NCBI GenBank assembly: GCA_964459225.1
Contig: CAYWKB010000003.1
Coordinates: 1 to 40,453 of the forward strand
DNA length: 40,453 nucleotides
Direction of reading: 5' to 3'
Source of the DNA: an uncultured Candidatus Saccharibacteria bacterium
GTDB taxonomy: Bacteria; Patescibacteriota; Minisyncoccia; Phycocordibacterales; PALSA-1337
The notes below the pieces were generated by a model. The model was not told where the DNA came from. It worked only from the letters and a program-made list of their open reading frames with translations, and searched no databases. Positions 1,320-40,453 of the stretch are shown in pieces (position 1 is the stretch's first letter; each line of letters opens with the position of its first letter). A program made the translations under genes and the position numbers.

Positions 1320-4300
1320 TTAGTATCCTTCTTCTATATCGTCTGATTTTAATGTTGCTATCATCTGTTGCTTTGGACTACCTGCAAATCCTGAACCTGC
1401 TGGTATCAAGCGACCGATAATCACATTTTCCATTAGTCCTACTAGATCATCCTCACTTCCGCGTACTGCACTGTTTATAAGTACTCTTGTTGTATGCTGG
1501 AATGATGCTGCTGATAGGAAACTCTTACGTGATAGTGACACTTCAGTAATACCCATAACTACAGGTACTGCTTTTGCTCCATTTCCGCCACTTACCTTTG
1601 CTTTTGCATTTTCTTCTTGTAATTGTAAATCATCAACTATTGTTCCTTCAGATAAGATAGTATCTCCTGAATCCACAACCTTTCTTCTTGAGAACATTTG
1701 CTTCACGATAATTTCAATATGCTTTCTTGCTACTGTTTCACCCTGTAATTCGTAAATCTTACCGACTTCACTAATAACATAATCCTTTGCTTTTTCTGCA
1801 CCTCCGTATTCGAATACCTGATCAATGTCTGCTGATCCATCAGTTAATAGATCACCCTTTTTGACCTTATCTCCAACCTTTACTGTTGCTATACGCTTTG
1901 CTGTAAATGTGTATTCGACTTCTCCTGATTTCTTTCCTTTTGCTTTGTCTTCTATTTCTGCAATTACTTTTATTGTCTTTTCTTTTCCTAAATCTAATAC
2001 TTCTGAAACAACTCCATCAACTGATGCTACTACTGCTGGATTTTTTGGAGTTCTCTTTTCGAAGATTTCCTCAACTCTTGGTAGACCTTGTGTAATATCT
2101 CCTCCAACTGACGCTGTACCTCCGGCGTGGAATGTACGCATTGTAAGCTGTGTTCCTGGCTCACCGATCGCTTGTCCTGCAACTGTTCCAACTGCTTCAC
2201 CTAGTTCAACCAATCTGTTATTTCCTAGATCAACTCCATAACATTGTGCACATACTCCCATAACACTTTTACATGATAGTGGTGAACGTACCTTTACGGC
2301 TGTTATTCCGGCATCTTCTATACTCATTGCTTCTAGCTTTGTTAATAGATGATTTTTCTTAAACAATACCTTACCTGATGCATCTGTTACATCTTCAGCG
2401 ATAACTCTTCCTCTTATGTTTTTTGAAAGTGGAATACTGATACCTGATGCTGTTTGCTTTTTGATTATGATTGAATCCTTTGATCCACAATCATCTTCAT
2501 TTACCATAACATCTTGTGCAACTACGAATAGCTTACGTGTTAGATATCCTGCCTTTGCTGTGTTAAGTGCTGTATCTGTTAGACCCTTTCTTGAACCGTG
2601 TGTAGTAATAAAGTATTCAATAGGTGTTAGACCTTCCTTTGAACAAGAAAGAATTGGGAATTCGATTGTCTCTCCTGATGTTGAAGCGATAAGACCCTTC
2701 ATACCTGCCATCTGAGTAATCTGTGAATATGATCCGCGGGCACCTGACTTTACCATGTCATATACTGATCCCATTTTATCCAATGATCCTGGAATAAGCT
2801 TTTCAACATTATTTTTGGCATTGTGCCATATTTCCATATTTTTCCTCAATCTTTCTTCATCTGTTAGAAGTCCTTCACTAAATTGATTCATAACTTCTTC
2901 AGATTGTACTTTTGCTTTTGAGATAACATCCTTTTTACCTTCTGGAATTACAACATCATCAATACCCCATGTTGTACCTGAATGAGTTGCGTATTTGAAT
3001 CCGAATTTCTTTATACCGTCTAATATTCCTGGAATCTTATCTAGACCATGTGAAATTATCAAATCGTCGATTATTGATGATAGCTTCTTTCTTTCAATTT
3101 CCATATTTATGTATGGATAATCATCAGGAAGTGTTTGGTTAAATAATATACGTCCTACAGTTGTCTCAAATATTTTTCCATCAAATTCCTTAAACTTTGG
3201 ACTATCTGTTGGTAATACCTTTATTTTTGCTCTGTATGATACAACTCCAAAGTTATGGGCTGTAAGTGCTGCTTCTGGACTTTCAAATATTTTACCTTCA
3301 CCATTATCACCATCTACAACCTTAGTTATCCAGAAACATCCAAGCACAATATCAAGTAGCTTTGAAATAATTGTTGGATCACCATTTCCTGGCTTTAAGA
3401 TATTTTTATCTGATGCCATTATTTCTCTTGCTTCCATTTGAGCTTCTTCTCCAAGTGGAACGTGTACGGCCATCTGGTCACCGTCGAAGTCTGCGTTGAA
3501 GGCAGTACATACTAGTGGGTGAACTTGAATAGCATTTCCTTCAATCAATATTGGGCGGAATGCTTGTATACCAAGTCTATGTAGTGTTGGTGCGCGGTTA
3601 AGCAATACATATTTACCTTGTATAACTTCTTCTAGTATTTCCCAAACTTCCTTTGCTCCATCGTCTATTAGCTTTCCTGCTCCACGGATGTTGAATGCTA
3701 ATTCGCGTTTTAGTAGACCTGAAATTACGAATGGTTTAAATAGTTCAAGCGCCATATGCTTTGGCAATCCACATTGATCAAGTGATAGCTCTGGACCTAC
3801 GACGATAACTGAACGTCCTGAATAGTCTACACGCTTACCTAGAAGGTTTTGACGGAATAGTCCACGCTTGCTCTTAAGATTGTCTGAAAGAGACTTTAGA
3901 GCACGCTTTTGAGCCTGTACAGCGGCCGCTCCTGTAGCTGCACCATGTCTTATTGAATTATCAATAAGGGCATCTACTGCTTCTTGTAGAATTCTTTTTT
4001 CATTTCTTAAAATAACATCCGGCGCATCTATTTCCTTTAGTTTTAATAGACGATTATTTCTGTTTATTACTCTTCTGTATAAATCGTTTACATCTGATGT
4101 AGCATAACGACCTCCATCAAGTGCGACCATTGGGCGAAGTGCTGGTGGAATAACTGGAATACGAGTAAGGAACATCCACTCTGGTCTTGTACTAGACTTT
4201 ATCATTGATTTTATAAGAGATAATCTCTTTGAAATCTTATCTGAGTCTATTGAACTTGCTGCTTGTAGATCTGCCTCTAATTTTTCAGCTAATTTAACTA

Positions 4301-4997
4301 AATCAGTTTTCTTTAATATATCGTATATTGCTTCTGCTCCTATACTTGCTTCAAATAAAGCACCGTATTTCATTGAATATTTATGATACTGTACTTCATC
4401 CATTACAAATCCTGGAACTAGACTTTCGATTTCTCTTCTTGCTGTTATAACTAATTCTTTTAGAGCTTCTTTTGTCTTTTCATCTTGTGCTGCCTTTACC
4501 TTTGTTTTGAATTCTGAATCAAGCTCTTTTAGGAATGAGTCTTTTTCATTTTGATGAATATTTGTGACGATATATCCTGCAAAATATACTACTTTTTCTA
4601 GATCTGCAGTTGTCATACCAAGTACCAAACCAATACGAGATGGCATTGATCTTAGGAACCAAATATGCGATACAGGTGTTGCAAGCTCAATATGTCCCAT
4701 TCTCTCACGGCGAACTATTGAACGTGTAATTTCAACTCCACATTTTTCACAAGTAATTCCCTTATATCTTATTCCTCTGTACTTTCCACAATAACATTCA
4801 TAATCACGATCTGGACCGAAGATTTTTTCATCAAAAAGTCCACTCTTTTCTGAACGTTGTGTTCTATAGTTAATTGTTTCGGGCTTTGTAATTTCACCAA
4901 ATGACCATTCTAATATTCTTTCAGGAGAAGCAACGCCGAGCTTTACTGCATCAAAGTCTTGTGGATCTATATTTTTTCTATTTATATTTTTTTCCAT
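1320..4997 (-). CDS. rpoC: DNA-directed RNA polymerase beta' subunit (1225 aa)
   Basis: Catalytic NADFDGD motif, Zn-finger CYCGKY...CEKC, LLGKRVDYSGRSVI, GEPGTQLTMRTFH. Confidence 0.99.
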   Translation of the reverse strand: MEKNINRKNIDPQDFDAVKLGVASPERILEWSFGEITKPETINYRTQRSEKSGLFDEKIFGPDRDYECYCGKYRGIRYKGITCEKCGVEITRSIVRRERMGHIELATPVSHIWFLRSMPSRIGLVLGMTTADLEKVVYFAGYIVTNIHQNEKDSFLKELDSEFKTKVKAAQDEKTKEALKELVITARREIESLVPGFVMDEVQYHKYSMKYGALFEASIGAEAIYDILKKTDLVKLAEKLEADLQAASSIDSDKISKRLSLIKSMIKSSTRPEWMFLTRIPVIPPALRPMVALDGGRYATSDVNDLYRRVINRNNRLLKLKEIDAPDVILRNEKRILQEAVDALIDNSIRHGAATGAAAVQAQKRALKSLSDNLKSKRGLFRQNLLGKRVDYSGRSVIVVGPELSLDQCGLPKHMALELFKPFVISGLLKRELAFNIRGAGKLIDDGAKEVWEILEEVIQGKYVLLNRAPTLHRLGIQAFRPILIEGNAIQVHPLVCTAFNADFDGDQMAVHVPLGEEAQMEAREIMASDKNILKPGNGDPTIISKLLDIVLGCFWITKVVDGDNGEGKIFESPEAALTAHNFGVVSYRAKIKVLPTDSPKFKEFDGKIFETTVGRILFNQTLPDDYPYINMEIERKKLSSIIDDLIISHGLDKIPGILDGIKKFGFKYATHSGTTWGIDDVVIPEGKKDVISKAKVQSEEVMNQFSEGLLTDEERLRKNMEIWHNAKNNVEKLIPGSLDKMGSVYDMVKSGARGSYSQITQMAGMKGLIASTSGETIEFPILSCSKEGLTPIEYFITTHGSRKGLTDTALNTAKAGYLTRKLFVVAQDVMVNEDDCGSKDSIIIKKQTASGISIPLSKNIRGRVIAEDVTDASGKVLFKKNHLLTKLEAMSIEDAGITAVKVRSPLSCKSVMGVCAQCYGVDLGNNRLVELGEAVGTVAGQAIGEPGTQLTMRTFHAGGTASVGGDITQGLPRVEEIFEKRTPKNPAVVASVDGVVSEVLDLGKEKTIKVIAEIEDKAKGKKSGEVEYTFTAKRIATVKVGDKVKKGDLLTDGSADIDQVFEYGGAEKAKDYVISEVGKIYELQGETVARKHIEIIVKQMFSRRKVVDSGDTILSEGTIVDDLQLQEENAKAKVSGGNGAKAVPVVMGITEVSLSRKSFLSAASFQHTTRVLINSAVRGSEDDLVGLMENVIIGRLIPAGSGFAGSPKQQMIATLKSDDIEEGY

Positions 4998-5020
4998 ATT
5001 TTTTTTGTTATTTGATGAAA

Positions 5021-5563
5021 TTAATTGGTAATGGTGATGTAATCGTCACTTTGAGTTTCAACAAAATTATTGATGTCATTATTATTAATAAATATTTTGT
5101 AATTTCCTGTTTGAAAATTTGATGGTATTTCCCAAGTATATTTTCCCGTATTTGGAATTGCTGCAATTATATTATTGCATACATAACCATTAATATTTTT
5201 ACACCACATTATATTAATTTTTGATGATCCAAGATTTTTGCTTATCCAGGTAATATTTATTGTATTATCAACCTTGTATGTACCTTTTGAGTTTGGCGAA
5301 GTAATCTTAATAAAAGCTTGAGTAGAAGAAATTGGAAGATCAGCATTACAATGAGGATAATTAGTTGCACCATTAGAGCAGGTTTTTTTATCAGAGGTTA
5401 TTATTGAATCCTTCGCTGTACTTGTTACTATTGGTGATGTTGAACTTACATGTTGTTCTCCATGACAACAATCATAGACTCTAGTAAATGAATTGTAAGC
5501 AACACTTCCTCCAATCACTACTATCACTGCTATAATAATTCCCAAAATAATTTTTTTATTCAT
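5021..5563 (-). CDS. Membrane-anchored surface protein (180 aa): N-terminal TM helix, Ser/Thr-rich linker, Cys motif, C-terminal Ig-like (Ser-Thr-rich GPI-anchored/Kre9-like) domain
   Basis: Hydrophobic IILGIIIAVIVVIGG; CSNGATNYPHC; ITSPN...INITW...NTGKYTWEIP pattern. Confidence 0.7.
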   Translation of the reverse strand: MNKKIILGIIIAVIVVIGGSVAYNSFTRVYDCCHGEQHVSSTSPIVTSTAKDSIITSDKKTCSNGATNYPHCNADLPISSTQAFIKITSPNSKGTYKVDNTINITWISKNLGSSKINIMWCKNINGYVCNNIIAAIPNTGKYTWEIPSNFQTGNYKIFINNNDINNFVETQSDDYITITN

Positions 5564-5584: not shown

Positions 5585-8500
5585 TTACTCAGTCTCTTCG
5601 ACATTGTGAGCTTTTTTGATAAGTTCGACATCAAGTGCTAGACCACGTAATGACTTTAGAAGCACATTAAATGATGCTGGAAGATTTGGTTGCTTTAACT
5701 TTTCTCCCTTAACAATAGAATCAAATGCTTGTGAACGACCTTGTATATCATCTGACTTGATAGTTAGAATTTCACGCAAAGTATGTGCAGCTCCATGACC
5801 CAAAAGTGCCCAGACTTCCATTTCTCCAAATCTCTGTCCTCCTCCTTGTGCCTTTCCTCCAAGAGGCTGTTGAGTAATAAGTGAGTAAGGTCCGATTGAA
5901 CGCATATGTATCTTATCTTCAACCATGTGATGAAGTTTCAGGATATACATATATCCAACTGCAATTGGTCTATCGAATTCTTCACCTGTTCTACCGTCCT
6001 TTAATTTCATTTTTCCACTTGCATCAAAACCTGCTTTTACAAGTTCTTCTTTTATTTCTATATCTGTTGCTCCTGTAAATGGTGGAACTATAGCTTGATA
6101 TCCAAGTGTATGTGCTGCAAGACCAAGGTGTAACTCTAATATCTGTCCTAGGTTCATACGTGAAGGCACTCCGAGTGGTGTCAAAATAACATCCACAGGT
6201 GTTCCATCAGCCATGTATGGCATATCTTCTTCTGGAAGTATTCTTGAAATAACTCCTTTGTTTCCGTGACGTCCTGCAAGCTTGTCTCCGACTGAAACAT
6301 TTCTAAGTTCAGCAACTTCAATGTAAATCTTTTTGATTATTCCTGATTCTAGCTTGTCTCCCTTTTCTCTTGAAAATACTTTAACAGAAATAACACGTCC
6401 GCGCTTTCCTCCTTCCATTCTCTTTGAAGTATCTTTTACATCTCTTGCCTTTTCACCGAAAATTGATCTTAATAGTCTTTCTTCTGGTGTAAGTTGTGTC
6501 TCACCCTTTGGTGAAATCTTACCAACCAAGATATCTCCTGGACGAACCTCAGCTCCAACGCGTACTATTCCGTCTTCTGCTAGATTTTTTAGTTTTGCTT
6601 CTGCAACATTTGGAATATCGCATGTTGTTACTTCTGGACCTAACTTTGTATCACGTACATTAACTACGAATTCTTCGATATTAATTGAACTGAATTTACT
6701 ATTTTTAACTACTCTTTCTGAAAGAATAATAGCGTCTTCATAGTTATTTCCTGACCATGACATAAATGCTACTAGCATGTTTTGTCCTAATGCTATTTCA
6801 CCATTATCTGATGTTGATGTATCTACTAGAACATCACCTTTTTTAACCTTATCTCCTAGATTTACTATTGGTCTTTGATGGAAAGCTGTGAATCCATTTG
6901 TTCTTGAAAAATGAACAAGATTGTATTCCTTTTTACCATTTTTCTTACCTGTAAATACAACTTTATTTGCATCTACATAAGTTATTTCACCGTCTTCTGG
7001 TGCCAATATTATTCTTCCTGTATCTACAACTGCCTTCTTTTCTATTCCTGTTGCAACAAGTGGTGCTTCTGGAATAAGACATGGAGTTGCCTGTCTTTGC
7101 ATGTTTGAACCCATGAGTGCACGGTTTGCATCGTCATGATTTAGGAAAGGAATAAGTGATGTACCTATTGAAAATGCTTGATTTGTTGAAACGTCTATAT
7201 AATCAACTTCACCTGCCTTTGCTAGTCCTGGCTTACCATTTATACGTACTTCAACTTCATCTGCTGTTATCTTTCCTGATTTATCATATGGAATTGCAGC
7301 ATGAGCGATACGGAAGTTTTCTTCCTCTAATGCATTCATATATTGAATTTCATCTGTGACCTTTCCATTTTTAACTTTTGCATATGGAGTTTCAATCATT
7401 CCGAAATCATTTATTCTTGCAAAAGTAGAAAGACGAAGCACAAGTCCAATGTTTGGTCCTTCTGGTGTATGTATTGGACATAGACGACCGTAGTGTGATG
7501 GGTGAACGTCACGAACTTCAAATCCTGCACGCTCTCTTGTAAGACCTCCTGGACCTAGAGCAGTGAGCAATCTTAGATTTTCAATTTCTGAAAGAACATT
7601 TTCCTGTCCCATGAACTGTGAAAGTTGATTTGTTGTGAAAAATTCCTTTATACGAGCTTGAAGTGGTCTTGGGAAAACGAAATTAACAGGCAAAGTAACG
7701 TCTGGCTCAACTGTAGACATTCTGTCCTGAATGTTTCTCTTCATTTGTGTCATACCTACACGTAGTTTTTGCTGTAGCAATTCACCCACATATCTTGCAC
7801 GACGTGATCCTAGATGATCTATATCATCTTCAACTGCATCTGGAGTATTGTTTAGACTTACTATATGAGTAACTATTGTGGCGATATCATCTGCTGATAT
7901 TGTTCTTCTTTCTAATTCCTTTTCATCCATTGATTTATTAAATCTCTTATTGAAACGGAATCTACCAACTTTATTGATATCATATCTATCAGGATGGAAT
8001 ATATTTCCAATAAATTCACGTGCATTATCTGCTGTAGCCAAGTCTCCATCTCTTAATCTCTTGTGTATTTCGATATATGCATCATCAACTGTCTTTGCAT
8101 GATCCTTTGCAAGTGTTAGCTCTACTGCCTTTTTTGCCAATTCATCACCTTTAAAGAATTCAAGTATTGAAGCATCAGTATTTGCTCCGAGTATTCTCAT
8201 TAGAGTTGTGATCGGGAATTTCCTCTTTCTATCTATACGTACATATACTGTTCCATCAGAATCTGACTCTATTTCCATCCAAACACCGCGAGCTGGGATG
8301 ATTTTTGCGCCAAAAAGATTTTTACCCTTTGTTTCATTAAGAGTGAAGAAAATACCGAATGATCTTGCAAGTTGTGCAACAATAACTCTTTCAATACCAT
8401 TTATAATGAAAGTTCCGTGATCTGTCATCAAAGGTAAATCAGCAAGGAACATTTCCTGCTCTTTTGTTGAATCTAAAAGCTTATTGCGAAGCTTTACCTT

Positions 8501-29626: not shown

Positions 29627-30085
29627 TTATCGTATTTTCTGTAAAGCAAGCCTGGCATAAAATTTTGTATTATCATTTATCGGAGAAATACTTTCTATCT
29701 CATTTAAATTACACCACTTCCATTCATCAGTAGGTTTTTCTGGTATAACAGCGTCGGTGCTAGACTTTGCAAAAAAGACAAAGCATATATGCTCATGTGT
29801 CGGACTCATTCTTAGTCTACTAATGCTTACAGGCAACTTTATTTCTCTATAATCCTCACCCAAACTAGGAATATACTCACCAGAATTAGCGATTATTTCA
29901 ATATCCAAACCAACCTCTTCCTTAACCTCTCTTATAGCCGCTTCAACTGGATCCTCGTCCAACTCTACATGTCCGCCAACAGACAGCCATATATTATATT
30001 TATCATGCTTCCTGAGTAAGACTTTATCTTTATAGACAACAAAGGTTTCAGAAACAAAATCAATTTTTTCATGGATATGTGGCAT
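29627..30085 (-). CDS. NUDIX hydrolase
   Basis: GGHVELDEDPVEAAIREVKEEVG. Confidence 0.92.
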   Translation of the reverse strand: MPHIHEKIDFVSETFVVYKDKVLLRKHDKYNIWLSVGGHVELDEDPVEAAIREVKEEVGLDIEIIANSGEYIPSLGEDYREIKLPVSISRLRMSPTHEHICFVFFAKSSTDAVIPEKPTDEWKWCNLNEIESISPINDNTKFYARLALQKIR

Positions 30086-30323
30086 AGATTGATTATATAG
30101 TATTAATTGTATTATAGATATAATTATTTATTTATCCAAAATGTTTTCTAAAATTTCCTTCCTTGTATTAGCCCTTTCTAGGTTTGGGCTATTAACTTAT
30201 CTTTATTAGGTATTGTATCTACATGTATCAAATACTGAATGAAGGACTTATGTTTAAGAAAAGGGATTTGCTGACATGTTTGAAGAGTAAAATTGACTGG
30301 AAAAAAGATAAATTTAAATTGAT

Positions 30324-30935
30324 TTATCTTTTGAGTTTATCAATTAGGGATTGACTTTCTCCTGCTTGTTTTTTACGGTTTGCCAAAGTTGTTTTGATTA
30401 TGTTGATTATTGAACCATTGTATCCAGACACATCTTTAGAAACCCATTCAAGATTCTGTTTGATGTCTCTAACATCCTTTTCCATTAGAGCATTGATCTT
30501 ATCTGCATCCTTCTCCACTGTTTGATACGTAAGTACTAATTCATTATTTCTAACATCAGCATCAGGTGTTCCTGAAAGTGAATAGGTTGAAGGTTGGCAT
30601 TTAAATAATTCTGACTCACCGTCAAACGGAACCCTGACTGTAAGATGAAGACCTGTTACAGTATATTCTCGATCATCTATGAATCCAGATCTACGCCCAC
30701 CAACTGTCACAGGGCCTTCTGAGGCATCGACTTTTATATCTAACTCTTTTAAGATAGGAGGTTTAATTGAATGCCGATTCGCAAATTCGTCTGCAGCTTT
30801 TGAGTCTTCAATATTCTGCAATTCGCTAAAGTTTAAGCCATTTATTTCTTCCAGTAATCTTTCTGCGCGAGTACGCAAATAGGCACCTAGGTCTGTACCC
30901 CTGAAAAGCGAATTTGAATATCCTCGTCTAAACAT
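30324..30935 (-). CDS. Hypothetical protein (203 aa)
   Basis: Long ATG-started ORF; VPFDGESELFKCQPST motif; no catalytic motif seen. Confidence 0.75.
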   Translation of the reverse strand: MFRRGYSNSLFRGTDLGAYLRTRAERLLEEINGLNFSELQNIEDSKAADEFANRHSIKPPILKELDIKVDASEGPVTVGGRRSGFIDDREYTVTGLHLTVRVPFDGESELFKCQPSTYSLSGTPDADVRNNELVLTYQTVEKDADKINALMEKDVRDIKQNLEWVSKDVSGYNGSIINIIKTTLANRKKQAGESQSLIDKLKR

Positions 30936-30959
30936 GGATCAATTATATCAAAAACCCTC

Positions 30960-31802
30960 TCAAGATGCAGGTGATTCTTTCGAAGCCTCTATTCTTACTG
31001 GTAGATCAGTCATGGCGTAATGTACAAATTGTTTGCCTAATTCGGTCAATTCATACAAATCTTCATCATCAAATGCTGAAGTAAGCGGTTTCGGCCCAGA
31101 TCCCTTTTGACGTCTTTGTGGCGTCTTTGGAACAGGTTTGCCGTAATAATCAAATTCGACATGTTGGCGGATAACACTTCCGGTACTTAAATCTCTAAAA
31201 AGAAGTCTGAAAAGATCCGCATCGGCAGAACTTTCAGCCACTTCTTGCTTACCTAACTCAACCCACACTCCTCCTCGAGAAATACCTTCGCGGTAATGTT
31301 TATATATAATCGTAATCACCTTAAAATGGAGCTCTGAATAGACTCTTAGCCAATCGATGAACAACCGCACAACATCGTCACTGGATAGTTCACTTGCAGC
31401 AGCATTCGAAAGAATATTTCTAATATATTGTCTTTTCTCTTCACTCTCGGCACCAGACCATTCACGAAAGGTTTTCTTCAGTAAAGATTGGAATTCCTTG
31501 CTCTCGATTCGAGCGGCTATTTTTTCATCATGTAAGTCGAGACGTGCCATTATCTCAAAAATGGTTTGTTCTTTCTCTTTGATTTCATCTTCAAGCATCT
31601 TAATCCATGCCTTAAAGAATTTGTTTACTTTATCTTGTTCATTTTCAGACCAAGCGCTCGCCACAGCTGACAAAAAACTTCCGACAACAGGAGCGACTGT
31701 ACTGACAACGCCGCCAACCATTTGCATACTACCCCTTACAACTTTGGGTAGTTCACCTTCTCTTGGAAATTCATCGTCTTTACTTGTCATATTATTTGTC
31801 AT
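30960..31802 (-). CDS. Hypothetical protein (280 aa), weakly Abi-alpha/DUF4393-like
   Basis: Helical N-terminus, SEEKRQYIRNILSNAA, C-terminal YELTELGKQFV (wHTH-like); family call is tentative. Confidence 0.65.
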   Translation of the reverse strand: MTNNMTSKDDEFPREGELPKVVRGSMQMVGGVVSTVAPVVGSFLSAVASAWSENEQDKVNKFFKAWIKMLEDEIKEKEQTIFEIMARLDLHDEKIAARIESKEFQSLLKKTFREWSGAESEEKRQYIRNILSNAAASELSSDDVVRLFIDWLRVYSELHFKVITIIYKHYREGISRGGVWVELGKQEVAESSADADLFRLLFRDLSTGSVIRQHVEFDYYGKPVPKTPQRRQKGSGPKPLTSAFDDEDLYELTELGKQFVHYAMTDLPVRIEASKESPAS

Positions 31803-31875
31803 GTTACTTAATAGTATAGCTTATGTACTGTGCTGACCAATATCTCCAAACTTGTAATCGCCCTATTTTTATTTA

Positions 31876-32361
31876 TTAAATATTATTACTTGGACCATCA
31901 AGTTTTGATTCTTTGGAAAGAATAAACCTAATCTTTTTTTCAGATTCGGGACCCATGAGCTTTCCAAACTTAATAAGAATTGCATCATTTCCAGCCTGTG
32001 AAAATGACAAAAGAATAATTCTTAGAAATAATTTAATTTTAGAAAGAAAACTATTTGAACTCTTTAGATATTCCTTTGATATAAACCCATTTTTAAGATG
32101 GTTAATAATTGAGTTTCTTAAAAATTTTCCATATAACTCAATTATCAAGACTTTGTCCACCTCTTCTCTATTATACAGACTCAAAAACCATGGTTTCATA
32201 TATTCATAATATACATGAATATCTTTTTCACTTTGTCTGTATAATTTAGTCGTACTGTTAATTAAGGTTTCGTATGCATACTCAGCATCAACAACAGCTT
32301 CAAATGTTTTAATTTCTGGCAACACAATTGTATCTTCTTTTACTATTCTAGGAAAATTCAT
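31876..32361 (-). CDS. Hypothetical protein (161 aa)
   Basis: AT-rich ATG-started ORF; no motif. Confidence 0.65.
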   Translation of the reverse strand: MNFPRIVKEDTIVLPEIKTFEAVVDAEYAYETLINSTTKLYRQSEKDIHVYYEYMKPWFLSLYNREEVDKVLIIELYGKFLRNSIINHLKNGFISKEYLKSSNSFLSKIKLFLRIILLSFSQAGNDAILIKFGKLMGPESEKKIRFILSKESKLDGPSNNI

Positions 32362-32410
32362 ATTAACTAAATATATCTTATTGATTATGAAAAATCTACA
32401 CCCAACTGCT

Positions 32411-32445
32411 TGTCATACTTGGAATCGCCCTCGCCTCTCGTCGTG
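32411..32445 (-). repeat. Second att-like tRNA-Gln 3'-end copy with the same GC-rich element end (proximal junction)
   Basis: TGTCATACTTGGAATCGCCCTCGCCTCTCGTCGTG, 33/35 identical to 29569-29603. Confidence 0.75.
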
Positions 32446-32574
32446 CCGTCGCACTCCTCGGGCTGGGCACCGGCTCGCGGTTCGTCCTACTGGACTTACA
32501 ACGCTCCGCCGTTCTCATCCAACTCCGAACAGTATGCTCATTTCGAATGACAAAGTCATTCTCAATGATCATTG

Positions 32575-32645
32575 CTGCCGGACTTGGAATCGAACCAAAA
32601 TTAGAAGCTTCAAAGGCTCCTGTCCTACCATTAGACGATCCGGCA
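32575..32645 (-). tRNA. tRNA-Gln(UUG)
   Basis: TGCCGGA acceptor stem, GGAGC-CTTTGAA-GCTTC anticodon arm, TTCGATT T-loop; CCA not encoded. Confidence 0.95.
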
Positions 32646-32715
32646 AAATAGAACAGACTTATATTAACCCGTAAATCCCTAATACACAAGACAGTTAATC
32701 ATAATCTAATACAAA

Positions 32716-32759
32716 AGAAAATCGCATACATAATACCCCTAAAATGAATGCGATTTTCT
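32716..32759. terminator. Inverted repeat downstream of pyrG
   Basis: AGAAAATCGCAT...ATGCGATTTTCT, 12-bp arms with a 20-nt loop. Confidence 0.5.
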
Positions 32760-32854
32760 GGCTATATTTCGACCTTTGTTATTTCAGTATATTTTATAGT
32801 GATGAAATCCGTATAAAATCTTAATAAAATCAAAATGAAATTTTTATTTAGATT

Positions 32855-34555
32855 TTATCTGTTTTTGCTGTCTTTTTCCCCTCTTTGCTTTGATGCTTTA
32901 ACAAAAGCAGTAAATAGTGGATGTGGTCTAAGTGGTCTTGCTAGGAATTCTGGATGAAATTGTGTTCCTAAGAAAAATGGATGCACTGTCTTTGGTAGCT
33001 CTGCTATTTCCATAAGTTTTCCATCTGGTGATGTACTTGAAAATACTAATCCTGCATTTACCAATCTTTCAATGTATTCATGATTTACTTCATATCTATG
33101 TCTATGTCTTTCTTCTATTATTTCACTACCATATGAATCATATGCTATTGTTCCTTTTTTAACTATTGATTTATAGAGTCCCAATCTCATACTTCCTCCA
33201 TAGTCTTTGTTTTCCAATTTCTTTTTTTGATCTGGCATTATATCGATAATTATATAGGATGCTTTTGAATCTATTTCGGCGGTGTTTGCCCCTTTTAATT
33301 TCAAAACATTTCTAGCATATTCTATAGTCATAAGTTGCATACCGTAACACAATCCGAAATATGGTATTTTATTTTCTCTTGCATATTTGATTACATTTAA
33401 CTTTCCCTCTATTCCCTTTTCGCCAAATCCTCCTGGAACTATTATTCCATCAAACATATCCAAAATACTGTAATCTGGATTTGCTATTTCAAAATCATTT
33501 GCATTTATTGTATGTATTTTTGGTTTTACTTTTTCTGAATATGCTGAATATTTTATTGCTTCTAGAACAGAAACATATGCATCAGTAAGTACAAAGTCCC
33601 CAGTACTGAAGTATTTACCAACAATTGCTATATTTACTTCCTTTTCAGTTGTCTTTACTGCATTTGCAAACTTTGACCAAGCTGCAAGTCCTGTTCCCTT
33701 TCTTTCTTTTAATTTCAAAGATTTGATAAGTAATTCACCGAGTTTATCTTTTTCAAAATTTATTGGAACATCATATACACTATCAATATCTGGTGCTGAA
33801 ATTACATTTTCAAGTGGAATATTACATGCTATCCCTATTTTTTCTTTTCTTTTTTTATCTATTGGAACTTCTGAGCGACCGATAATAAAATCAGTGTGAA
33901 CTCCATAACTTGCTAGTTGATGAACTGCGTTTTGTGTTGGTCTACTTTTCATCTCCCCAATCTTTGAAGGAATTGGTAAATAACTTACCATAATAAATAT
34001 TACATCATCTGGATGTTTAATCTTTAAAACTCTTGCTGCTTCGATGAACATAATATTTTGATAATCTCCTACTGTTCCGCCGATTTCAATTATTGAAATT
34101 TCAGACTCATTTAATTGTGCTGCCTTTTCAAATCTATGAACTATTTCATCTCTTATATGAGGAACTGCTTCTACACATTTACCGGCAAAACCAAGATTTC
34201 TTTCTTTATCTATTACATGTTTATAAACCATACCTGATGTTATATAGTCATCATGCATAAGATCACGATTTAGAAATCTTTCATAATTTCCCATATCCTG
34301 ATCAGTTTCTAGTCCAGAATTTAAAACAAAAACCTCACCATGCTCAGTTGGATTCATTGTACCCGCATCAACATTTAGATACGGATCTACTTTTGCTAGA
34401 TTTACTATAAATCCTTTTGATTGAAGCAGTGTACCAATAGATGAAGCTGCAATACCCTTACCCACCCCTGACATCACACCACCGACGACAAAAATATATT
34501 TATGACTTTGCTTTCCCTTTCTTACTTTCTTTTCACCTACTTTCTTGTCTTTCAT
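32855..34555 (-). CDS. pyrG: CTP synthase
   Basis: GGVMSGVGKG, KVDPYLNVDAGTMNPTEHGEVFV, GLCYGMQ, RHRHRYEVN, TQFHPEF. Confidence 0.99.
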   Translation of the reverse strand: MKDKKVGEKKVRKGKQSHKYIFVVGGVMSGVGKGIAASSIGTLLQSKGFIVNLAKVDPYLNVDAGTMNPTEHGEVFVLNSGLETDQDMGNYERFLNRDLMHDDYITSGMVYKHVIDKERNLGFAGKCVEAVPHIRDEIVHRFEKAAQLNESEISIIEIGGTVGDYQNIMFIEAARVLKIKHPDDVIFIMVSYLPIPSKIGEMKSRPTQNAVHQLASYGVHTDFIIGRSEVPIDKKRKEKIGIACNIPLENVISAPDIDSVYDVPINFEKDKLGELLIKSLKLKERKGTGLAAWSKFANAVKTTEKEVNIAIVGKYFSTGDFVLTDAYVSVLEAIKYSAYSEKVKPKIHTINANDFEIANPDYSILDMFDGIIVPGGFGEKGIEGKLNVIKYARENKIPYFGLCYGMQLMTIEYARNVLKLKGANTAEIDSKASYIIIDIMPDQKKKLENKDYGGSMRLGLYKSIVKKGTIAYDSYGSEIIEERHRHRYEVNHEYIERLVNAGLVFSSTSPDGKLMEIAELPKTVHPFFLGTQFHPEFLARPLRPHPLFTAFVKASKQRGEKDSKNR

Positions 34556-34581
34556 TTCGGAATAAATTAATTTTAATGATT

Positions 34582-35538
34582 CTATTGTATCAAATATCTT
34601 TTAACTGCCAAGTAACTAGATATTGCTCCCAAAATTATTCCTGAACCCATGATTATGGCAAAGATTTGTCCAAAATAACTCATAAAATAACTTGAAAATA
34701 CATTTATAATTAATGAAAAGTCCTGCACCCCAGAAACCCCAACAAATTTAGTTATCACTGAGTCGCTATAAAATGCAAATAATCTGAGTATTATAAGTGT
34801 TAATACCGCTGAAAATACTCCGTACATAATTCCTGAAACTACAAACGGACCTCGTATATATAGATGTGATGCTCCCACAAGCTTCATCACTGATATTTCA
34901 TCTTTTGCTGTGAATATAATTAATCTAATGGTATTAAATGTAACTATTATCGCCACTATAACAAGTATAATTATTGTGACTGTACCTGCTTTTTCGATTG
35001 CTGGTATTATGCGTCCGAGTCTATCTATGATTAATTTATTTTGATTATAATTAACTTTATCTACTATACTTACACCTGATTTTGATAAAGCATTTTTGCT
35101 ATCTAAAAATCTAGCTATGCCTGCGTATTGTGATGGTTCTTTTGCTTTAATATTTAAAATAGCACGAAAGGGATTTGTACCTATTTCATCCAAGCCTTGC
35201 ATCATCAAAGTATTATCCTTCCATTTATCTTTAAAATCTGACAGGGCTTGATCTCTTGAAATATATTCAACCTTTGAAACTTCTGGTAAACTCTCGATTG
35301 TTTTTTTTAAATTTAAAATATCTGTCTCCTCAGAATCAATTACAAAATAAACATTAATATCCACTTTATTTTTAACTTCTTTAATCAAAGTCCTTCCAAA
35401 AGCAGAACTAAATATAAGTCCTCCAAATACAACAAGCGAAAGTGTTAAAACTACAATAGCAGAAAATGACAGGAAGCCATTTCTCCAAAAATTTATAAAG
35501 CCTGATCTTACTATTCTTTTAAAACTTGTTAATATCAT
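34582..35538 (-). CDS. ftsX: Cell division permease FtsX
   Basis: FWRNGFLS, FNTIRLIIF, EISVMKLVGA...IRGPF; adjacent to ftsE. Confidence 0.93.
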   Translation of the reverse strand: MILTSFKRIVRSGFINFWRNGFLSFSAIVVLTLSLVVFGGLIFSSAFGRTLIKEVKNKVDINVYFVIDSEETDILNLKKTIESLPEVSKVEYISRDQALSDFKDKWKDNTLMMQGLDEIGTNPFRAILNIKAKEPSQYAGIARFLDSKNALSKSGVSIVDKVNYNQNKLIIDRLGRIIPAIEKAGTVTIIILVIVAIIVTFNTIRLIIFTAKDEISVMKLVGASHLYIRGPFVVSGIMYGVFSAVLTLIILRLFAFYSDSVITKFVGVSGVQDFSLIINVFSSYFMSYFGQIFAIIMGSGIILGAISSYLAVKRYLIQ

Positions 35539-35544
35539 AATATT

Positions 35545-36234
35545 TTATAGTACAAATTTACCATTTTTATCATCACGAATAATTTTGCCTTTTTCCATTG
35601 TTATTACCCTGCCACCTATTTCCTCTACCACTCCTTTATTATGAGTTGTGAGTAGTACAGTTGTGCCTAGTTTATGAATCTTTTGTAATATCTTAATTAT
35701 TTCAAATGTATTTATTGGATCAAGATTACCAGTTGGCTCATCTGCAATAATAATATCTGGTTGTGTAACTATAGCCCTCGCTATTGCCACGCGTTGTTTT
35801 TCGCCTCCTGATAATTCATGAGGGAAACTCCATATCTTTTTGCCCAAATCAACTAATTCCAAAACATGAGGAACATCTGATGAAATCTCACTATCTGTCC
35901 TACCTGCAGCCTCCATTGCAAATGCGATATTTTCGTATGCGGTCTTATTTGGTATCAATCTATAATCTTGAAAAACCATACCTATTCGTCTTCGGAGTTT
36001 ATTCATTTGATTTTTCTTGAGTTTATGAATATTTGCACTTTCAAAAAAGACAGCACCCTCAGTTGGTTTGTCTTCTGCTATTAGCATTTTCATTAGTGTT
36101 GTCTTACCTGCACCTGAATGACCAACAATGGTTATGAATTCATTTGGTTCAACACCAAAACTGACTTCGTCTAATGCAATACTTTCGTCTGGATATATTT
36201 TGCTTACCTTATCGAAATAAATCATACTAGGCAT
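35545..36234 (-). CDS. ftsE: Cell division ATP-binding protein FtsE
   Basis: [43 protein letters not shown]. Confidence 0.95.
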
Positions 36235-36238
36235 TATA

Positions 36239-37123
36239 TCATAATGTTCTTTCTGCCTCTAGAAATTCGTCCAAATCTCCCTCTAAGACTTTTTCAACTT
36301 GCGATGTTTCTACATTTGTCCTATGATCTTTGACCATTTTGTATGGATGAAGTACATACGATCGTATTTGATTTCCCCATTCTATTGATGTTGTCTTGCT
36401 TATATACATTCCTTTTTCTTTTGCTTTTCTTTCATCTTCCATTTGTTTAAAAAGTTTGCCTTTCAAAATATCTAATGCTTTTTCTTTATTTTGTGCTTGT
36501 GATCTTTCGGATGTGACATGTACTGATAGACCGGTTGGCTTATGTACTATTCTAACGGCAGTCTCTCTCTTATTTACATTTTGTCCTCCTGGACCTCCTG
36601 ATTTTGCTATTGAAATTTCAATATCTTTTTCAGGAATTTCAAAATCAGCGCTATTTACTTTTTCAAATTTTGGAATTATTTCAACCATAGAAAAAGAAGT
36701 ATGACGCAATTGCTTTGCATTAAATGGTGAAATCCTCACAAGTCTATGAACACCGCTTTCATTTTTCAATGTGCCGTAAACATTTTTACCTGAAATCTCA
36801 ACTGTAATATTTCTATATCCTCCATGATCATTTGTATGTTCATGCAAAATTTCCATACCCCATCCTTTGTTTTCTGACAATTTTCTATACATTCTAAATA
36901 GTATCGCTGAAAAGTCTTCAGCATCATCTCCTCCTGCACCAGAAAAAATAGTCATAATAGCATCTCCTTTATCAAATTTACCTATACCTTCGAGTGCATC
37001 CTTTTGCTCCTGCAATTCCTTTATCATTGATTGAGCTTTTTCTGAATTATTCCAAAAATCAGGCATTTGCATTGCCATTTCAATTTCAGAAATTCTTTCT
37101 ATTATTTTCTGCTTTGCTTCCAT
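36239..37123 (-). CDS. prfB: Peptide chain release factor 2 (short, 294 aa; no programmed frameshift)
   Basis: SPF specificity motif (RISPFNA), [22 protein letters not shown]. Confidence 0.95.
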
Positions 37124-37135
37124 ATATTAAGAATA

Positions 37136-37384
37136 CTATATTGCACCCTCTTTGCGAAGTATTTTTATTTTATTATTATTTCCCCTATTATATCCACCAG
37201 TCTTACCATCACTTCTTACAACTCTATGACATGGAATTTTGCTATTGTAATTTTTATTTAAAATATTTCCTACAGCCCTATATGCTTTAGGATTACCAGC
37301 AAGTATTGCCACCTGCTTATATGTCATGGTGTGACCTTTTTTTATTGACTTTGTTATTTCAAATACTTTTTCTTTAAAATTCAT
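37136..37384 (-). CDS. MGMT (O6-alkylguanine-DNA alkyltransferase) family protein, single domain
   Basis: YRAVGN and active-site IPCHRVV; ATG at 37384 (the ORF-track start overlaps the tRNA). Confidence 0.9.
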   Translation of the reverse strand: MNFKEKVFEITKSIKKGHTMTYKQVAILAGNPKAYRAVGNILNKNYNSKIPCHRVVRSDGKTGGYNRGNNNKIKILRKEGAI

Positions 37385-37399
37385 TTTATTTATTTTAAG

Positions 37400-37470
37400 A
37401 GCCAAAGATGAGAATCGGACTCATGTTCTCGCTTTACGAAAGCGATGTTCTGCCACTGAACTACTTTGGC
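37400..37470 (-). tRNA. tRNA-Thr(CGU)
   Basis: GCCAAAG/CTTTGGC acceptor stem, TCGCT-TTCGTAA-AGCGA anticodon arm; T-loop reads TCCGATT. Confidence 0.9.
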
Positions 37471-37471
37471 A

Positions 37472-38143
37472 TTAATTCCCTTTCAAAATATCTGCATGAA
37501 AAAACCATGCTCCTAAAACAGCTAAAAGTGTACCGAAAACTCCGACAATAGCTACAATGGTGAATTTGCCAGATATTAGCAAATCACCAAACAATATATA
37601 GAGTACTACAAGAAATGCATGTACTGAAATATGTACAACTATAAAAAACCAAAAGTTGATTTTTGTTAATCCTGCGGCATATGCAAATATATCCATAAAT
37701 CCAGCAAAAAATATCCTTGCTCTAATAAATTTCTTTCTATCACTCAACTGTTCAACAACTTTTTCAAGCATTGGTATTTGACCATTTCCTGTGAAATAGT
37801 GAAGTACTGATCTACCGAACTTTCTACTAATCCAAAATGCTATTGAGGAACCGATAGCATCTCCCAGTAAACTAAAAAATAATCCTTTCCAAAATCCGAA
37901 TAAAGCCCCAGCTATAGGATAGATAATTGTTCCACCCAAAGGTGCAACTACAATTGTTGTTGCTTTTAGAATAATTAAAATCACTGGTGCAAATACACCC
38001 GCAGTTTCTACTTTTTCTCTAAGACTATTCAAGCCTAAAGTAACGGTCAAATAATATGCTATTCCTATAGTAATAATTATGATTAATATATTCCTAATAG
38101 TATCTCTTAATGATGGGGGCTTTATTCCTTCGGTATTATCCAT
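37472..38143 (-). CDS. TVP38/TMEM64 (VTT/SNARE-associated, YdjX-like) membrane protein
   Basis: APLGG...AGALFGFWKG...GSSIAFWISRKFGR, AYAAGLTKI. Confidence 0.88.
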   Translation of the reverse strand: MDNTEGIKPPSLRDTIRNILIIIITIGIAYYLTVTLGLNSLREKVETAGVFAPVILIILKATTIVVAPLGGTIIYPIAGALFGFWKGLFFSLLGDAIGSSIAFWISRKFGRSVLHYFTGNGQIPMLEKVVEQLSDRKKFIRARIFFAGFMDIFAYAAGLTKINFWFFIVVHISVHAFLVVLYILFGDLLISGKFTIVAIVGVFGTLLAVLGAWFFHADILKGN

Positions 38144-38203
38144 AAATTATTTATTGTCTAAAAGTATAACAAAATTATAAATTGAAGTCATATAAATCAA
38201 CTG

Positions 38204-38489
38204 AGCCGTTGTCCGGGATTGAACCGGAGACCTCGTCATTCACATATACCTTTACTTCGTTATATTATACACAACTTATAAAAGGGTTAGACTGTATCTT
38301 GCGCATATCTTTTGATTTAGCGTCCCTTGTCAGTCGTTCGGGCGACAATATTAATATTACTTATCGCCACGGTCTTACCCATTTGTATTGCATGGACTTT
38401 AACCGTAATTCGGGTTTCATCATTTCGTTTCCAAAATGAAGGGCTATCGGATAACCAATGACGTGCTCTACCAACTGAGCTACAACGGC
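38204..38489 (-). tRNA. tRNA-Thr(GGU), split by an intron (exon 1 38489-38454, exon 2 38240-38204)
   Basis: Joined exons give GCCGTTG...CGTCA-TTGGTAA-TGACG...TCCGG-TTCAATC-CCGGA-CAACGGC-T, a perfect cloverleaf. Confidence 0.93.
38241..38453 (-). ncRNA. Group I self-splicing intron (213 nt) between tRNA positions 36 and 37
   Basis: P1 GGU|UAU-CCG-AUAGCC with a U-G pair at the 5' splice site; terminal G; P2 with GAAA loop; P4 UACGGU/ACCGUG; P7 elements CGAACGACUG and AAGAUACAGUCU; no ORF inside. Confidence 0.88.
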
Positions 38490-38619
38490 TTTCTACTTTT
38501 CCATACTAACACATTTATAGGGATGTGTTTACTGTATTTTGAGTTCTAGTTTAAATTATGACCATAAAAGAGATGTACTTAAGCACAAAACATGAAAATT
38601 ATACTGATACTCTACAATA

Positions 38620-39609
38620 TCATGAATCAGTAATTTTCTTTTTTAACTTCCAGCCGTTGCCATGACTTAAAAGACCAAGATACGACTCGACAACTTCCGG
38701 CTTTTCTTGAGAATCTTTGATTTTCTTGAACATACGATTTTTTGTCGTTGTCCGTATCACTCGATGATATGGAAAATGAACCCAGCCAAGGAAATCTACA
38801 CCCGACGAAGATGTCTTAATAAACACTTTGTCTGGATGAAGAGATAATTTTAATTGCTCACTGAGAAAGCCCTGAACCTTAGGTAAGATTTCCATCAACG
38901 AATCTTTATTGTGTTGCATAATGACGAAGTCATCGGCATACCGAATATAATATTTAGCTTTGAGCTTGTGCTTTACAAACTGGTCAAATTCATTCATGTA
39001 AATATTTACCAAGAGTTGCGAGGTCAGGTTACCTAAAGGCAAACCCTTACCTGGACCAGTACTTTGAAAACTCTCAACAATGCGTTCAACAAGCCAGATC
39101 GTTTCCATATCATTAATATGTCGCTTGAATATTTCAATAAGCTTTTCATGATCAATAGATGCAAAAAACTTTCTAACATCACATTTCAGGACCCAGCATG
39201 CCCTGCTATTACTTTTTGACACTTTCATAACGAAATCATTGAATCGATTTAACGCACGATGTGTTCCTTTAAATTGTCGACAGGAGTAGGAATCATAAAT
39301 AAACTTTTTATCAAAATAGGGATATAAAATCCTGTAAATAGCATGGTGCAATAATCTATCTCGGACCGTAGCCTTGTGAATACTTCTCGGTTTCGGATCA
39401 CTTATCGAAAAAGCTTCGTATGCACCATGTCTATACATTTTTGTTCGCAGTTCCTCATGCAATTTGAAGATACTATGAGAGAGATTCAGAGAAAATTCAG
39501 CAACGTCCTTTTTAGATTTCTTGCCACATATAAATTCGGTCCACGCATCGCATAGATTTTTGATGGATATGATATTCTTATACTCATGACCCATACTAAT
39601 AAGGATCAT
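38620..39609 (-). CDS. DGR-type reverse transcriptase
   Basis: VRDRLLHHA, KCDVRKFFASIDH, GLPLGNLTSQ, YIRYADDF, GVDFLG; uninterrupted; in-frame starts at GTG 39636, ATG 39609 and ATG 39594. Confidence 0.95.
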   Translation of the reverse strand: MILISMGHEYKNIISIKNLCDAWTEFICGKKSKKDVAEFSLNLSHSIFKLHEELRTKMYRHGAYEAFSISDPKPRSIHKATVRDRLLHHAIYRILYPYFDKKFIYDSYSCRQFKGTHRALNRFNDFVMKVSKSNSRACWVLKCDVRKFFASIDHEKLIEIFKRHINDMETIWLVERIVESFQSTGPGKGLPLGNLTSQLLVNIYMNEFDQFVKHKLKAKYYIRYADDFVIMQHNKDSLMEILPKVQGFLSEQLKLSLHPDKVFIKTSSSGVDFLGWVHFPYHRVIRTTTKNRMFKKIKDSQEKPEVVESYLGLLSHGNGWKLKKKITDS

Positions 39610-39980
39610 ATTACCCCCCCCCCCGAGAATTACCACAGGTAATTCTCAAATCGAAAGAGACATATCGTTTTTGGCTCTCTATCTATCGTGATTTTCCGAA
39701 AGTCGAGCGGTATGGAATTGGAAACAAAATTGAACAGGCTTTTCTTGATGTACTTGAATACACATTCTGTCTTTCTTATCTCCCGCCTGAACACAAAATA
39801 CCGATATTGAACAAAGCCATCACAAAACTTGATATTGTGAAGTTCTTTGTGCAACTCGCATGGGAAAGTAAAATTATTCCAACTGATACATACTCGGACT
39901 TAATCGGAAGACTTGAGGAAATAGGGCGACAACTTGGTGGTTGGAAGAAGGGTTTGCAAGCAAAAACTCCCCGACCTTAA
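39586..39980 (+). CDS. avd: Avd-like DGR accessory protein (four-helix bundle), absent from the ORF track; the only plausible ATG is out of frame across a C11 tract
   Basis: Frame 39603-39980 reads ...PPPRELPQVILKSKETYRFWLSIYRDFPKVERYGIGNKIEQAFLDVLE...LDIVKFFVQLAWE...LEEIGRQLGGWKK...*; FPKxERYxIG and EIGRQLGGW are Avd/bAvd-like; ATG 39586 would join this frame with C12 or C9. Confidence 0.85.
39614..39624 (+). repeat. C11 homopolymer (G11 on the TR/RT strand)
   Basis: tta-ccccccccccc-gag read directly. Confidence 0.9.
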
Positions 39981-39989
39981 GCCGAGGAG
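39967..39989 (-). other. Hairpin immediately 3' of the TR, overlapping the avd stop codon
   Basis: Minus strand CTCCTCGGC-TTAAG-GTCGGGGAG (two G-U pairs, so it folds better on the TR strand) followed by TTTTT. Confidence 0.7.
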
Positions 39990-39999
39990 AAAACCAACA

Positions 40000-40122
40000 G
40001 TTTCGAGAGAACACCTGGTTGCCATCATCCCACCTGTTCGGGTTATCGACGGAGTTCGCATTGACGTTCCAGCCGTCGTCGTTCCAGTTCACGTTGACCG
40101 CGCGAAGCACCCCAGCGTTATC
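40000..40122 (-). repeat. DGR template repeat (TR) core; boundaries approximate
   Basis: 41 codons DNAGVLRAVNVNWNDDGWNVNANSVDNPNRWDDGNQVFSRN, 11 of them Asn (10 AAC, 1 AAT); GC-rich; next to avd and RT. Confidence 0.88.
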
Positions 40123-40343
40123 GTATACAAGATCATCTATATCACCGCCAGCCAAACCATGACCAGCTGAATTTTATCCGGGACATCAAAGTCCACTAAT
40201 CTCATATACCAATTCTTGTTATTTTTTTGAAGAGACTTTCCCCACTCTCACACAAGGCATACCCAGTGTGACTCTCGAGAAAAATATCCTAAGACCATGA
40301 CGTGAAAGCCGTAACCGTCACGTAACACATGATTTCGGAAATA

Positions 40344-40352
40344 AGTATAACA
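40344..40352 (-). promoter_or_regulatory. Extended -10 promoter candidate for the TR RNA
   Basis: TGTTATACT just downstream of the 40375-40410 terminator; no clear -35. Confidence 0.5.
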
Positions 40353-40368
40353 AGAGAAATTTAAATAT

Positions 40369-40410
40369 AAAAAATTGACCCCCAATCCGCCGAAGCAGAC
40401 TGAGGGTCAA
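40369..40410 (-). terminator. Strong intrinsic terminator of a gene ending at or beyond the right edge
   Basis: TTGACCCTCAGTCTGC-TTCG-GCGGATTGGGGGTCAA (16-bp stem, 3 G-U pairs, cUUCGg loop) followed by T6. Confidence 0.85.
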
Positions 40411-40453
40411 AGAATCCAAGGAACAAAGGATCAGGCTTGCGCCGGAGCCGAAG

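Follow-up and report, generated by a model that had tools for sequence, protein, structure and literature searches.

The question raised by this locus is whether the 213-nt segment interrupting the anticodon loop of a tRNA-Thr(GGU) gene is a functional group I intron, where its boundaries lie, and how it relates to the introns already known from bacterial tRNAs. The interrupted gene is on the minus strand of the window, which here means the whole 40,453-nt stretch of DNA analyzed, and runs from 38489 to 38204 (286 nt). It consists of three parts:

38454–38489, minus strand: 5′ exon (GCCGUUGUAGCUCAGUUGGUAGAGCACGUCAUUGGU, 36 nt), tRNA positions 1–36, ending ...UUGGU, with the anticodon G34 G35 U36
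38241–38453, minus strand: group I intron, 213 nt without an ORF, scoring 163 bits with the family covariance model R1 (see below)
38204–38240, minus strand: 3′ exon (AAUGACGAGGUCUCCGGUUCAAUCCCGGACAACGGCU, 37 nt), starting AAUGACG, from A37 to the discriminator U73

CCA is not encoded, and the bases after the 3′ exon are CAG. When the 213-nt insert is deleted, ARAGORN recognizes tRNA-Thr(GGU) with all four stems perfect, as the preliminary description of this DNA had claimed. A deletion of this length in the anticodon loop can be placed in eight registers, and only the cut after position 36 yields both a U at position −1 and a G as the final intron base. The insertion point after U36 and the terminal G (ωG, at 38241) are thus both confirmed; a G is also the last base in all 77 homologous inserts described below. 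The sequence of the 5′ exon is identical in several Paceibacteria/Parcubacteria loci. The expectation that standard annotation would overlook this tRNA was also borne out, because the gene is reported neither by ARAGORN with default settings nor by the Rfam tRNA model at its gathering score, which call only tRNA-Gln(UUG) and tRNA-Thr(CGU) in the window. According to the tRNAscan-SE 2.0 paper, that program is not designed for detecting tRNA genes that contain a group I intron.

The secondary structure was predicted by energy minimization alone for 216 nt (three exon bases plus the intron). The minimum free energy (MFE) fold, with nothing imposed, has an energy of −50.9 kcal/mol (z = −2.6 versus shuffled sequences) and gives P1, P2 with a GAAA loop, P4–P5, P6, P7, P8, and P9. 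It therefore recovers every pairing reported earlier from the letters (P2, P4, P6, P7, and P9), together with P1 and its U·G at the splice site, in which GGU|UAU pairs with AUAGCC and whose U·G occurs in 74/74 homologues. The P3 pseudoknot, P9.0, and ωG were added to the MFE fold by inspection. The elements are as follows:

38442–38456, minus strand: P1 hairpin, exon GGU and intron UAU against the internal guide AUAGCC, with the U36·G wobble at the 5′ splice site
38418–38441, minus strand: P2 (MFE fold), 10 bp with one U·U mismatch; L2 is a GAAA tetraloop (38428–38431)
38412–38414, minus strand: P3 5′ strand CCC, in a pseudoknot with GGG at 38324–38326
38369–38406, minus strand: P4 (ACGGU/ACCGU), J4/5 (UAAAG, A-rich), P5 hairpin (UCCAU...AUGGG), and J5/4 (UAAG), from the MFE fold
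38341–38368, minus strand: P6 hairpin (GGCGAU...GUCGCC), abutting P4 directly, from the MFE fold
38331–38340, minus strand: J6/7 (CGA) and P7 5′ strand A(C)GACUG with the bulged C, invariant in 74 sequences
38324–38330, minus strand: J7/3 (ACAA) and P3 3′ strand GGG, from the family alignment
38301–38323, minus strand: P8 hairpin (MFE fold); its internal loop CUAAA...UAUG is similar to the 11-nt receptor of GAAA tetraloops
38289–38300, minus strand: J8/7 (AAGAUA) and P7 3′ strand CAGUCU (AAGAUACAGUCU), close to AAGAUAUAGUCC of catalogued bacterial tRNA group I introns
38286–38287, minus strand: P9.0 5′ strand AC, pairing with GU at 38242–38243 just before ωG
38249–38285, minus strand: P9 (CCUUU...AAAGG; MFE fold), irregular in its distal part; four of five pairs covary
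38241–38243, minus strand: P9.0 3′ strand GU and ωG (38241); the terminal G is present in 77/77 and 163/164 sequences

The core order P3-P4-P5-P6-P7-P3′-P8-P7′ is present, with the P3/P7 pseudoknot and a bulged P7 nucleotide. The P7 G-C pair with the bulged C is, we presume from established group I knowledge, the guanosine-binding site.

Relatives were collected by two scans, one blind to the intron and the other blind to the host gene. The exon-only scan covered one genome per GTDB species and required a Thr-type D arm, followed by TTGGT and then a non-A base. It returned 89 loci, nearly all labelled Patescibacteria/CPR, the labels including Saccharibacteria, Paceibacteria/Parcubacteria, and Kaiser-, Nomura-, Taylor-, Vogel-, and Moranbacteria. 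At 77 of the 89 loci, removal of 176–266 nt after U36 leaves a tRNA-Thr(GGU) whose anticodon, T, and acceptor stems are free of mismatches, and each of these inserts ends in G. Their homology with the window intron is plain. Long invariant blocks (GAAUCCCGAAUWACGGUUAA, AAGACCGUGGCG, CGAACGACUGACAAGGG, and AAGAUACAGUCUA) lie between variable hairpins. The core-motif scan used CGAACGACTGACAAGGG, a gap, and ATACAGTCTA, after which the boundaries were placed with R1. In JGI metagenomes, it found at least 120 contigs, and at least 111 of the matches are in tRNA-Thr(GGU) at 36/37. Among the matches listed, the family in cellular DNA is essentially specific to this site and amounts to at least 185 unique introns of 169–266 nt (median 194 nt); the shortest members (169–172 nt) still have P1–P9 and P9.0. 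The nearest relatives of the window intron among the matches listed are ~84% identical and occur in Parcubacteria/Taylorbacteria MAGs and in metagenome contigs without labels. These relatives, together with the identical exons, suggest that the window comes from a CPR genome. Very small introns at this one site make up a large CPR-associated family, to which the window intron belongs. The term minimal, as applied in the preliminary description, suits the architecture, which has neither peripheral domains nor an ORF, but not the length, as 213 nt exceeds both the family median of 194 nt and the minimum of 169 nt. A literature search on the smallest group I intron found nothing, and no size record is claimed here.

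Several other loci came up in these scans. A Halioglobus (Gammaproteobacteria) MAG carries a 104-nt insert at the same tRNA position (L007, 146–330; exon-only scan), and two loci from the same scan (L054 and L086) are uninterrupted tRNA-Thr(GGU) genes with C, not A, at position 37. On one contig (L139, 6801–7293, minus strand), a tRNA-Thr(GGU) with a family intron is located ~90 nt away from a tRNA-Tyr(GUA) with a different, classical-looking group I intron. Another intron was found in L176 (798–986), within a gene with CUGUC as its anticodon loop and an ambiguous ARAGORN call. In L024, the 16S rRNA match spans 2,943 nt (2191–5133) versus 1,533 positions in the model, which indicates large insertions in the gene; a separate canonical-looking group I core (5963–6163; R1, 32 bits) was found in the spacer downstream of the 16S gene, with no tRNA recognized around it.

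Covariation was evaluated over 50 pairs, including the P3 pseudoknot, in 74 distinct sequences aligned with MAFFT without any fitting to the structure. Paired cells amounted to 93.8%, versus 79.4% with shuffled partners and 32–44% with partners slid by 1–3 columns. Changes on both sides were found for 29 pairs (606 cells), and none of 500 shuffles reached the observed values. The covarying elements are P2, P5, P6, P8, P9, P9.0, and the inner part of P1. In P1, the G-C, G-C, and U·G pairs are invariant (74/74), and the inner pairs covary (GU/UA/GC and GC/AU). Nine of the 10 pairs of P2 change on both sides, and nearly all members have a GNRA loop as L2. All four counted pairs of P5 covary, P4 being invariant, and the closing pair of P6 is G-C in 65 sequences and A-U in nine, with covarying inner pairs. 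The four outer pairs of P8 are 99% paired, with up to six pair types, and the P8 closing pair of the window copy is an A·C mismatch. P9 of the short family members forms a 6-bp hairpin capped by GCAA or GUAA, whereas P9 of the window intron has no clean GNRA loop. P3 consists of three C-G pairs throughout the family, invariant apart from two U·G; a longer P3 formed by the bases flanking CCC and GGG was sought in the family alignment, and no covariation was found there. Since P3, P4, and P7 are essentially invariant, covariation is neutral on these helices, and they are supported instead by conservation and by similarity to catalogued introns.

Two tertiary elements could be followed in a larger set of 164 unique sequences. 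Both pairs of P9.0 are formed in 160 of them, in four Watson–Crick combinations (mainly GC/GC in 59, GU/AC in 37, AU/AU in 33, and AC/GU in 18). The P8 loop resembling the 11-nt receptor (CUAAR...YAWG) is accompanied by a GAAA L2 in 45 of its 48 occurrences, whereas GUAA and GCAA L2 loops go with CC:GG helices in P8 (52 cases) and never with the receptor motif. The window intron has the combination of L2 GAAA with P8 CUAAA...UAUG. This co-occurrence fits the known preferences between GNRA loops and their receptors. The structure is far beyond chance and is conserved with covariation in the homologues.

A poor covariance model score had been named in the preliminary description as a result that would speak against the intron, and taken literally, that is what Rfam returns. 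The Rfam 15 model Intron_gpI (RF00028) gave no match in the window, either at the gathering score or at E ≤ 10, on segments of 901 and 236 nt, and no match at the gathering score in 16 family loci. However, the Intron_gpI seeds include no bacterial introns (Williams 2020, bioRxiv 10.1101/2020.01.27.920355). R1, a covariance model built from the intron family alone, finds only one copy in the 40-kb window (163 bits), and it aligns helix for helix with the Tyr.4Ug-type intron in the tRNA-Tyr(GUA) of L139 (31 bits, E 6e-11, positions 1–198). It also matches canonical-looking introns in L024, L021, and L176. Because the seeds lack bacterial introns and R1 detects a catalogued tRNA intron, the Rfam miss is taken as insensitivity of that model and not as counter-evidence; the covariation in the family and the R1 match to the catalogued intron outweigh it.

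The classical hosts of group I introns among bacterial tRNAs are Leu(UAA), fMet, Ile(CAU), and Arg(CCU), of which the last two are cut at 36/37. The preliminary description had placed Thr(GGU) outside this set while allowing that CPR tRNA introns might already be catalogued, and both statements agree with what was found. Lui et al. 2021 (PMC8172020) mentioned that some tRNAs in circularized CPR genomes contain group I introns. Williams 2020 expanded the list of bacterial tRNA introns to 21 settings, and the seeds given there include Rba53.Thr.5Ug, that is, Thr(GGU) cut after loop position 5 with U−1 and ωG and the exon letters ggU. The window intron has the features by which the Thr.5Ug class is defined, namely tRNA-Thr, loop position 5, U−1, and ωG. 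Novelty is accordingly limited, as the host and site class and CPR tRNA introns are both already on record.

The comparison with the Thr.5Ug seed revealed both similarities and differences. The two have in common tRNA-Thr(GGU), the cut after U36, U−1/ωG, and a P2 with a GAAA loop. The seed has a GC-rich classical GUAGAGACCAGAC...AAGGGAUGGUCC and a P6 of the GCC-AAG form, whereas the window family shows CGAACGACUGACAAGGG...AAGAUACAGUCU together with a P6 that is a simple hairpin and a P3 of 3 bp. Judged from these sequences, the window family looks like a second sequence lineage at the Thr.5Ug site. Tyr.4Ug (seed Mba143.Tyr.4Ug) is similar to the window intron in the ACGGU/ACCGU P4, the GG start of P6, AAGAUAYAGUC, and P2 with GAAA; it differs in its host tRNA-Tyr(GUA), in the cut at loop position 4 instead of 5, in a longer P3 (UUCCGG/CCGGAA), and in a P7 5′ strand of the GUAGAGACUA type.

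The Azoarcus intron has a GNRA L2 loop with a receptor in P8, as in the window family. The introns of Azoarcus tRNA-Ile(CAU) and Agrobacterium tRNA-Arg(CCU), both of subgroup IC3, are further like the window intron in being inserted at 36/37, ORF-less, and ~200 nt long, with P2–P9 and P9.0 (PMC13168695). The window intron differs from these two in the sequences of P7, J6/7, and J8/7, in a P3 of 3 bp versus ~6 bp, in its CPR hosts, and in having no Rfam score. In a comparison by eye, the IC3 core signature (GUAGAGACUAGAC...AAGGGAUAGUCC, the GCC-AAG P6, and the ~6-bp P3) was not found in it; the L2/P8 clamp and the overall size resemble IC3, whereas the details of P7, J6/7, P6, and P3 do not match the IC3 seeds.

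The core-motif scan of IMG/VR yielded copies outside tRNAs on six contigs. In the phage contig L095 (6180–8080; the same as L213 and similar to L215, 7461–8932), three family copies lie between the portal and major-tail genes. Each follows a U and ends in a G preceded by a P9.0 match, and removal of 6280–6469, 6746–6935, and 7569–7752 fuses the pieces into one ORF of 442 aa, which weakly matches a PHROG major head protein (E 1e-5). L214 (1874–2063) has a family copy at a fourth site of the homologous gene. As group I introns in phage structural genes, these copies clearly belong to the same family (R1, 104–137 bits); they differ from the window intron in having protein-coding exons, slightly longer 3′ tails, and different guide sequences. 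The restored 442-aa ORF gives indirect support to the idea that family members are introns that would be removed precisely from RNA, and the phage copies show that the intron lineage is able to colonize new sites. Family copies (88–124 bits) were also seen in IMG/VR at L210 (4404–4599), L211 (3096–3282), and L212 (2509–2709), in non-tRNA contexts that look protein-coding.

The interrupted gene lies between a reverse-transcriptase ORF (38620–39636) and the gene of a VTT-domain membrane protein. Its orientation is shared by tRNA-Thr(CGU) and by the genes of an MGMT-like DNA-binding protein, RF2, FtsE, FtsX, and CTP synthase. The tRNA-Thr(CGU) gene (37399–37470), 733 nt downstream on the same strand, has G1-C72, C2-G71, and U73 in common with it and does not encode CCA either. 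Of the 91 Thr codons in the seven neighboring genes, 36 are ACU or ACC, which calls for a GGU decoder, and we infer that the interrupted gene is the sole Thr(GGU) gene of the genome.

In the source bioreactor metagenome, the depth of the intron equals that of its flanks (~110×), and the intron is therefore a fixed component of the genome. The DNA runs examined showed no intron-less allele, and a contig search with the neighboring VTT-domain gene gave contigs from the same study only, with no variant allele. Near-identical copies are present in freshwater metagenomes. Depth spikes of up to 1135× over the exons correspond to tRNA exons common across the community. One joint in run X5 ('skips 230') was considered as a spliced or intron-less form and rejected, since its 17 other letters form a CGU anticodon arm; judging from these letters, it is a tRNA-Thr(CGU) of another organism with D and T arms in common. 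Among the public RNA runs searched, none holds the locus, and four runs share 2 of 24 sampled words, presumably exon words.

Beside the tRNA gene, the reverse transcriptase ORF (38620–39636, minus strand) matches RVT_1 with an E value of 1.9e-27. Two further features were found: a bAvd-like fragment on the plus strand (39807–39980), whose 32.5 bits fall short of the Pfam cutoff of 40, and an ORF rich in Asn (39874–40155, minus strand), which could be a template or variable region. The region 38620–40155 is likely a diversity-generating retroelement; no direct repeat of a template and a variable region was found in 30000–40453, the window ending at 40453.

Here, we propose that the insert, located between U36 and A37 of a tRNA that is probably the ACC/ACU decoder of its CPR host, is a functional group I intron, and that it follows the standard splicing pathway, presumably by its own catalysis and independently of protein; we put the probability of this reading at roughly 0.88. 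The primary transcript would fold into P1–P9, in which the guide AUAGCC pairs with exon GGU and intron UAU and holds U36 in the U·G wobble. Exogenous guanosine bound in the P7 pocket, formed by the bulged C and the G-C pair, would attack after U36. In the second step, P9.0 would bring ωG (38241) into the same P7 pocket, and the freed 3′-OH of U36 would attack after ωG, joining U36 to A37 and producing mature tRNA-Thr(GGU). The GAAA loop of L2 probably docks into the receptor-like P8 loop and clamps the two domains, and in the short members docking of L9 with P5 may also stabilize the fold. As the intron encodes no protein, homing by an endonuclease of its own is not expected. Two histories are compatible with the confinement to one site across many CPR lineages: old vertical inheritance followed by losses, or spread through reverse splicing.

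Of the alternatives, dependence on a host protein (a chaperone or maturase-like factor) or on unusual ionic conditions for splicing is the most serious, although we consider it improbable. The P3 of only three pairs is unusually short, peripheral elements are few, and the window copy has A·C as the P8 closing pair and an irregular P9 without a clear GNRA L9, unlike the short members; any helper would have to act in trans because no protein is encoded by the intron. However, two classical tertiary clamps, the L2/P8 receptor and P9.0, look intact, and a phage capsid gene also carries introns of the same family. In vitro self-splicing is known from other bacterial tRNA introns that are ~200 nt long and lack an ORF. 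That the insert is instead a decaying, nonsplicing insertion in a tRNA pseudogene is very unlikely. The missing Rfam match, and the finding that none of the public RNA runs searched holds the locus, would be compatible with decay, but the exons are flawless here and in all 77 plus at least 111 homologous loci, and across at least 185 unique introns the core is invariant, with compensatory changes accompanying the drift of the helices, the signature of purifying selection on the fold. Lastly, a tRNA-His(GUG) with an insert after position 33, called by ARAGORN in intron mode (-i) with the same 213-nt length in a register shifted by 3 nt, can be practically dismissed together with a protein-spliced intron of the bulge-helix-bulge type, since the last intron base would then be T, P1 and P9.0 would both be broken, and the U−1/ωG rules violated, since the tRNA is preceded by A and not by G at position −1, since U73, G1-C72, and C2-G71 exactly match the neighboring tRNA-Thr(CGU), and since the insert carries a full group I core and not a bulge-helix-bulge motif. 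Protein-spliced tRNA introns of archaea and eukaryotes have the bulge-helix-bulge motif, are usually located at 37/38, and are short; the insert differs from them in its 36/37 site, its 213 nt, and its full ribozyme core.

A functional group I intron at this site does not overturn current understanding, as the host tRNA and the site are already present in the preprint catalogue. What the analysis adds is the family-level evidence, the blind spot of annotation and Rfam, the small size range, and the relatives in phage capsid genes. A broader proposal would be that the introns form a distinct, so far undescribed compact ribozyme lineage (169–266 nt, 3-bp P3, invisible to Rfam) common to the tRNA-Thr(GGU) genes of Patescibacteria and phage capsid genes. 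We regard this as tentative and rather doubtful. If it is true, there would be intron traffic between CPR cells and their phages, the introns would provide a sequence marker tying uncultured phages to CPR hosts, and they would be among the smallest natural self-splicing RNAs.

Because the gene is missed, genomes seem to be without a tRNA for the codons ACC and ACU, and both completeness checks of CPR genomes and inferences on their codon capacity are distorted; this concerns at least 77 species-level genomes and over 110 metagenome contigs. The family, whose members can be as short as 169 nt, also supplies many naturally covarying sequences for a group I ribozyme of very small size. The copies in the phage major-head gene hint at exchange between phages and CPR hosts. 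In these much-reduced genomes, an essential decoder appears to be dependent on RNA self-splicing.
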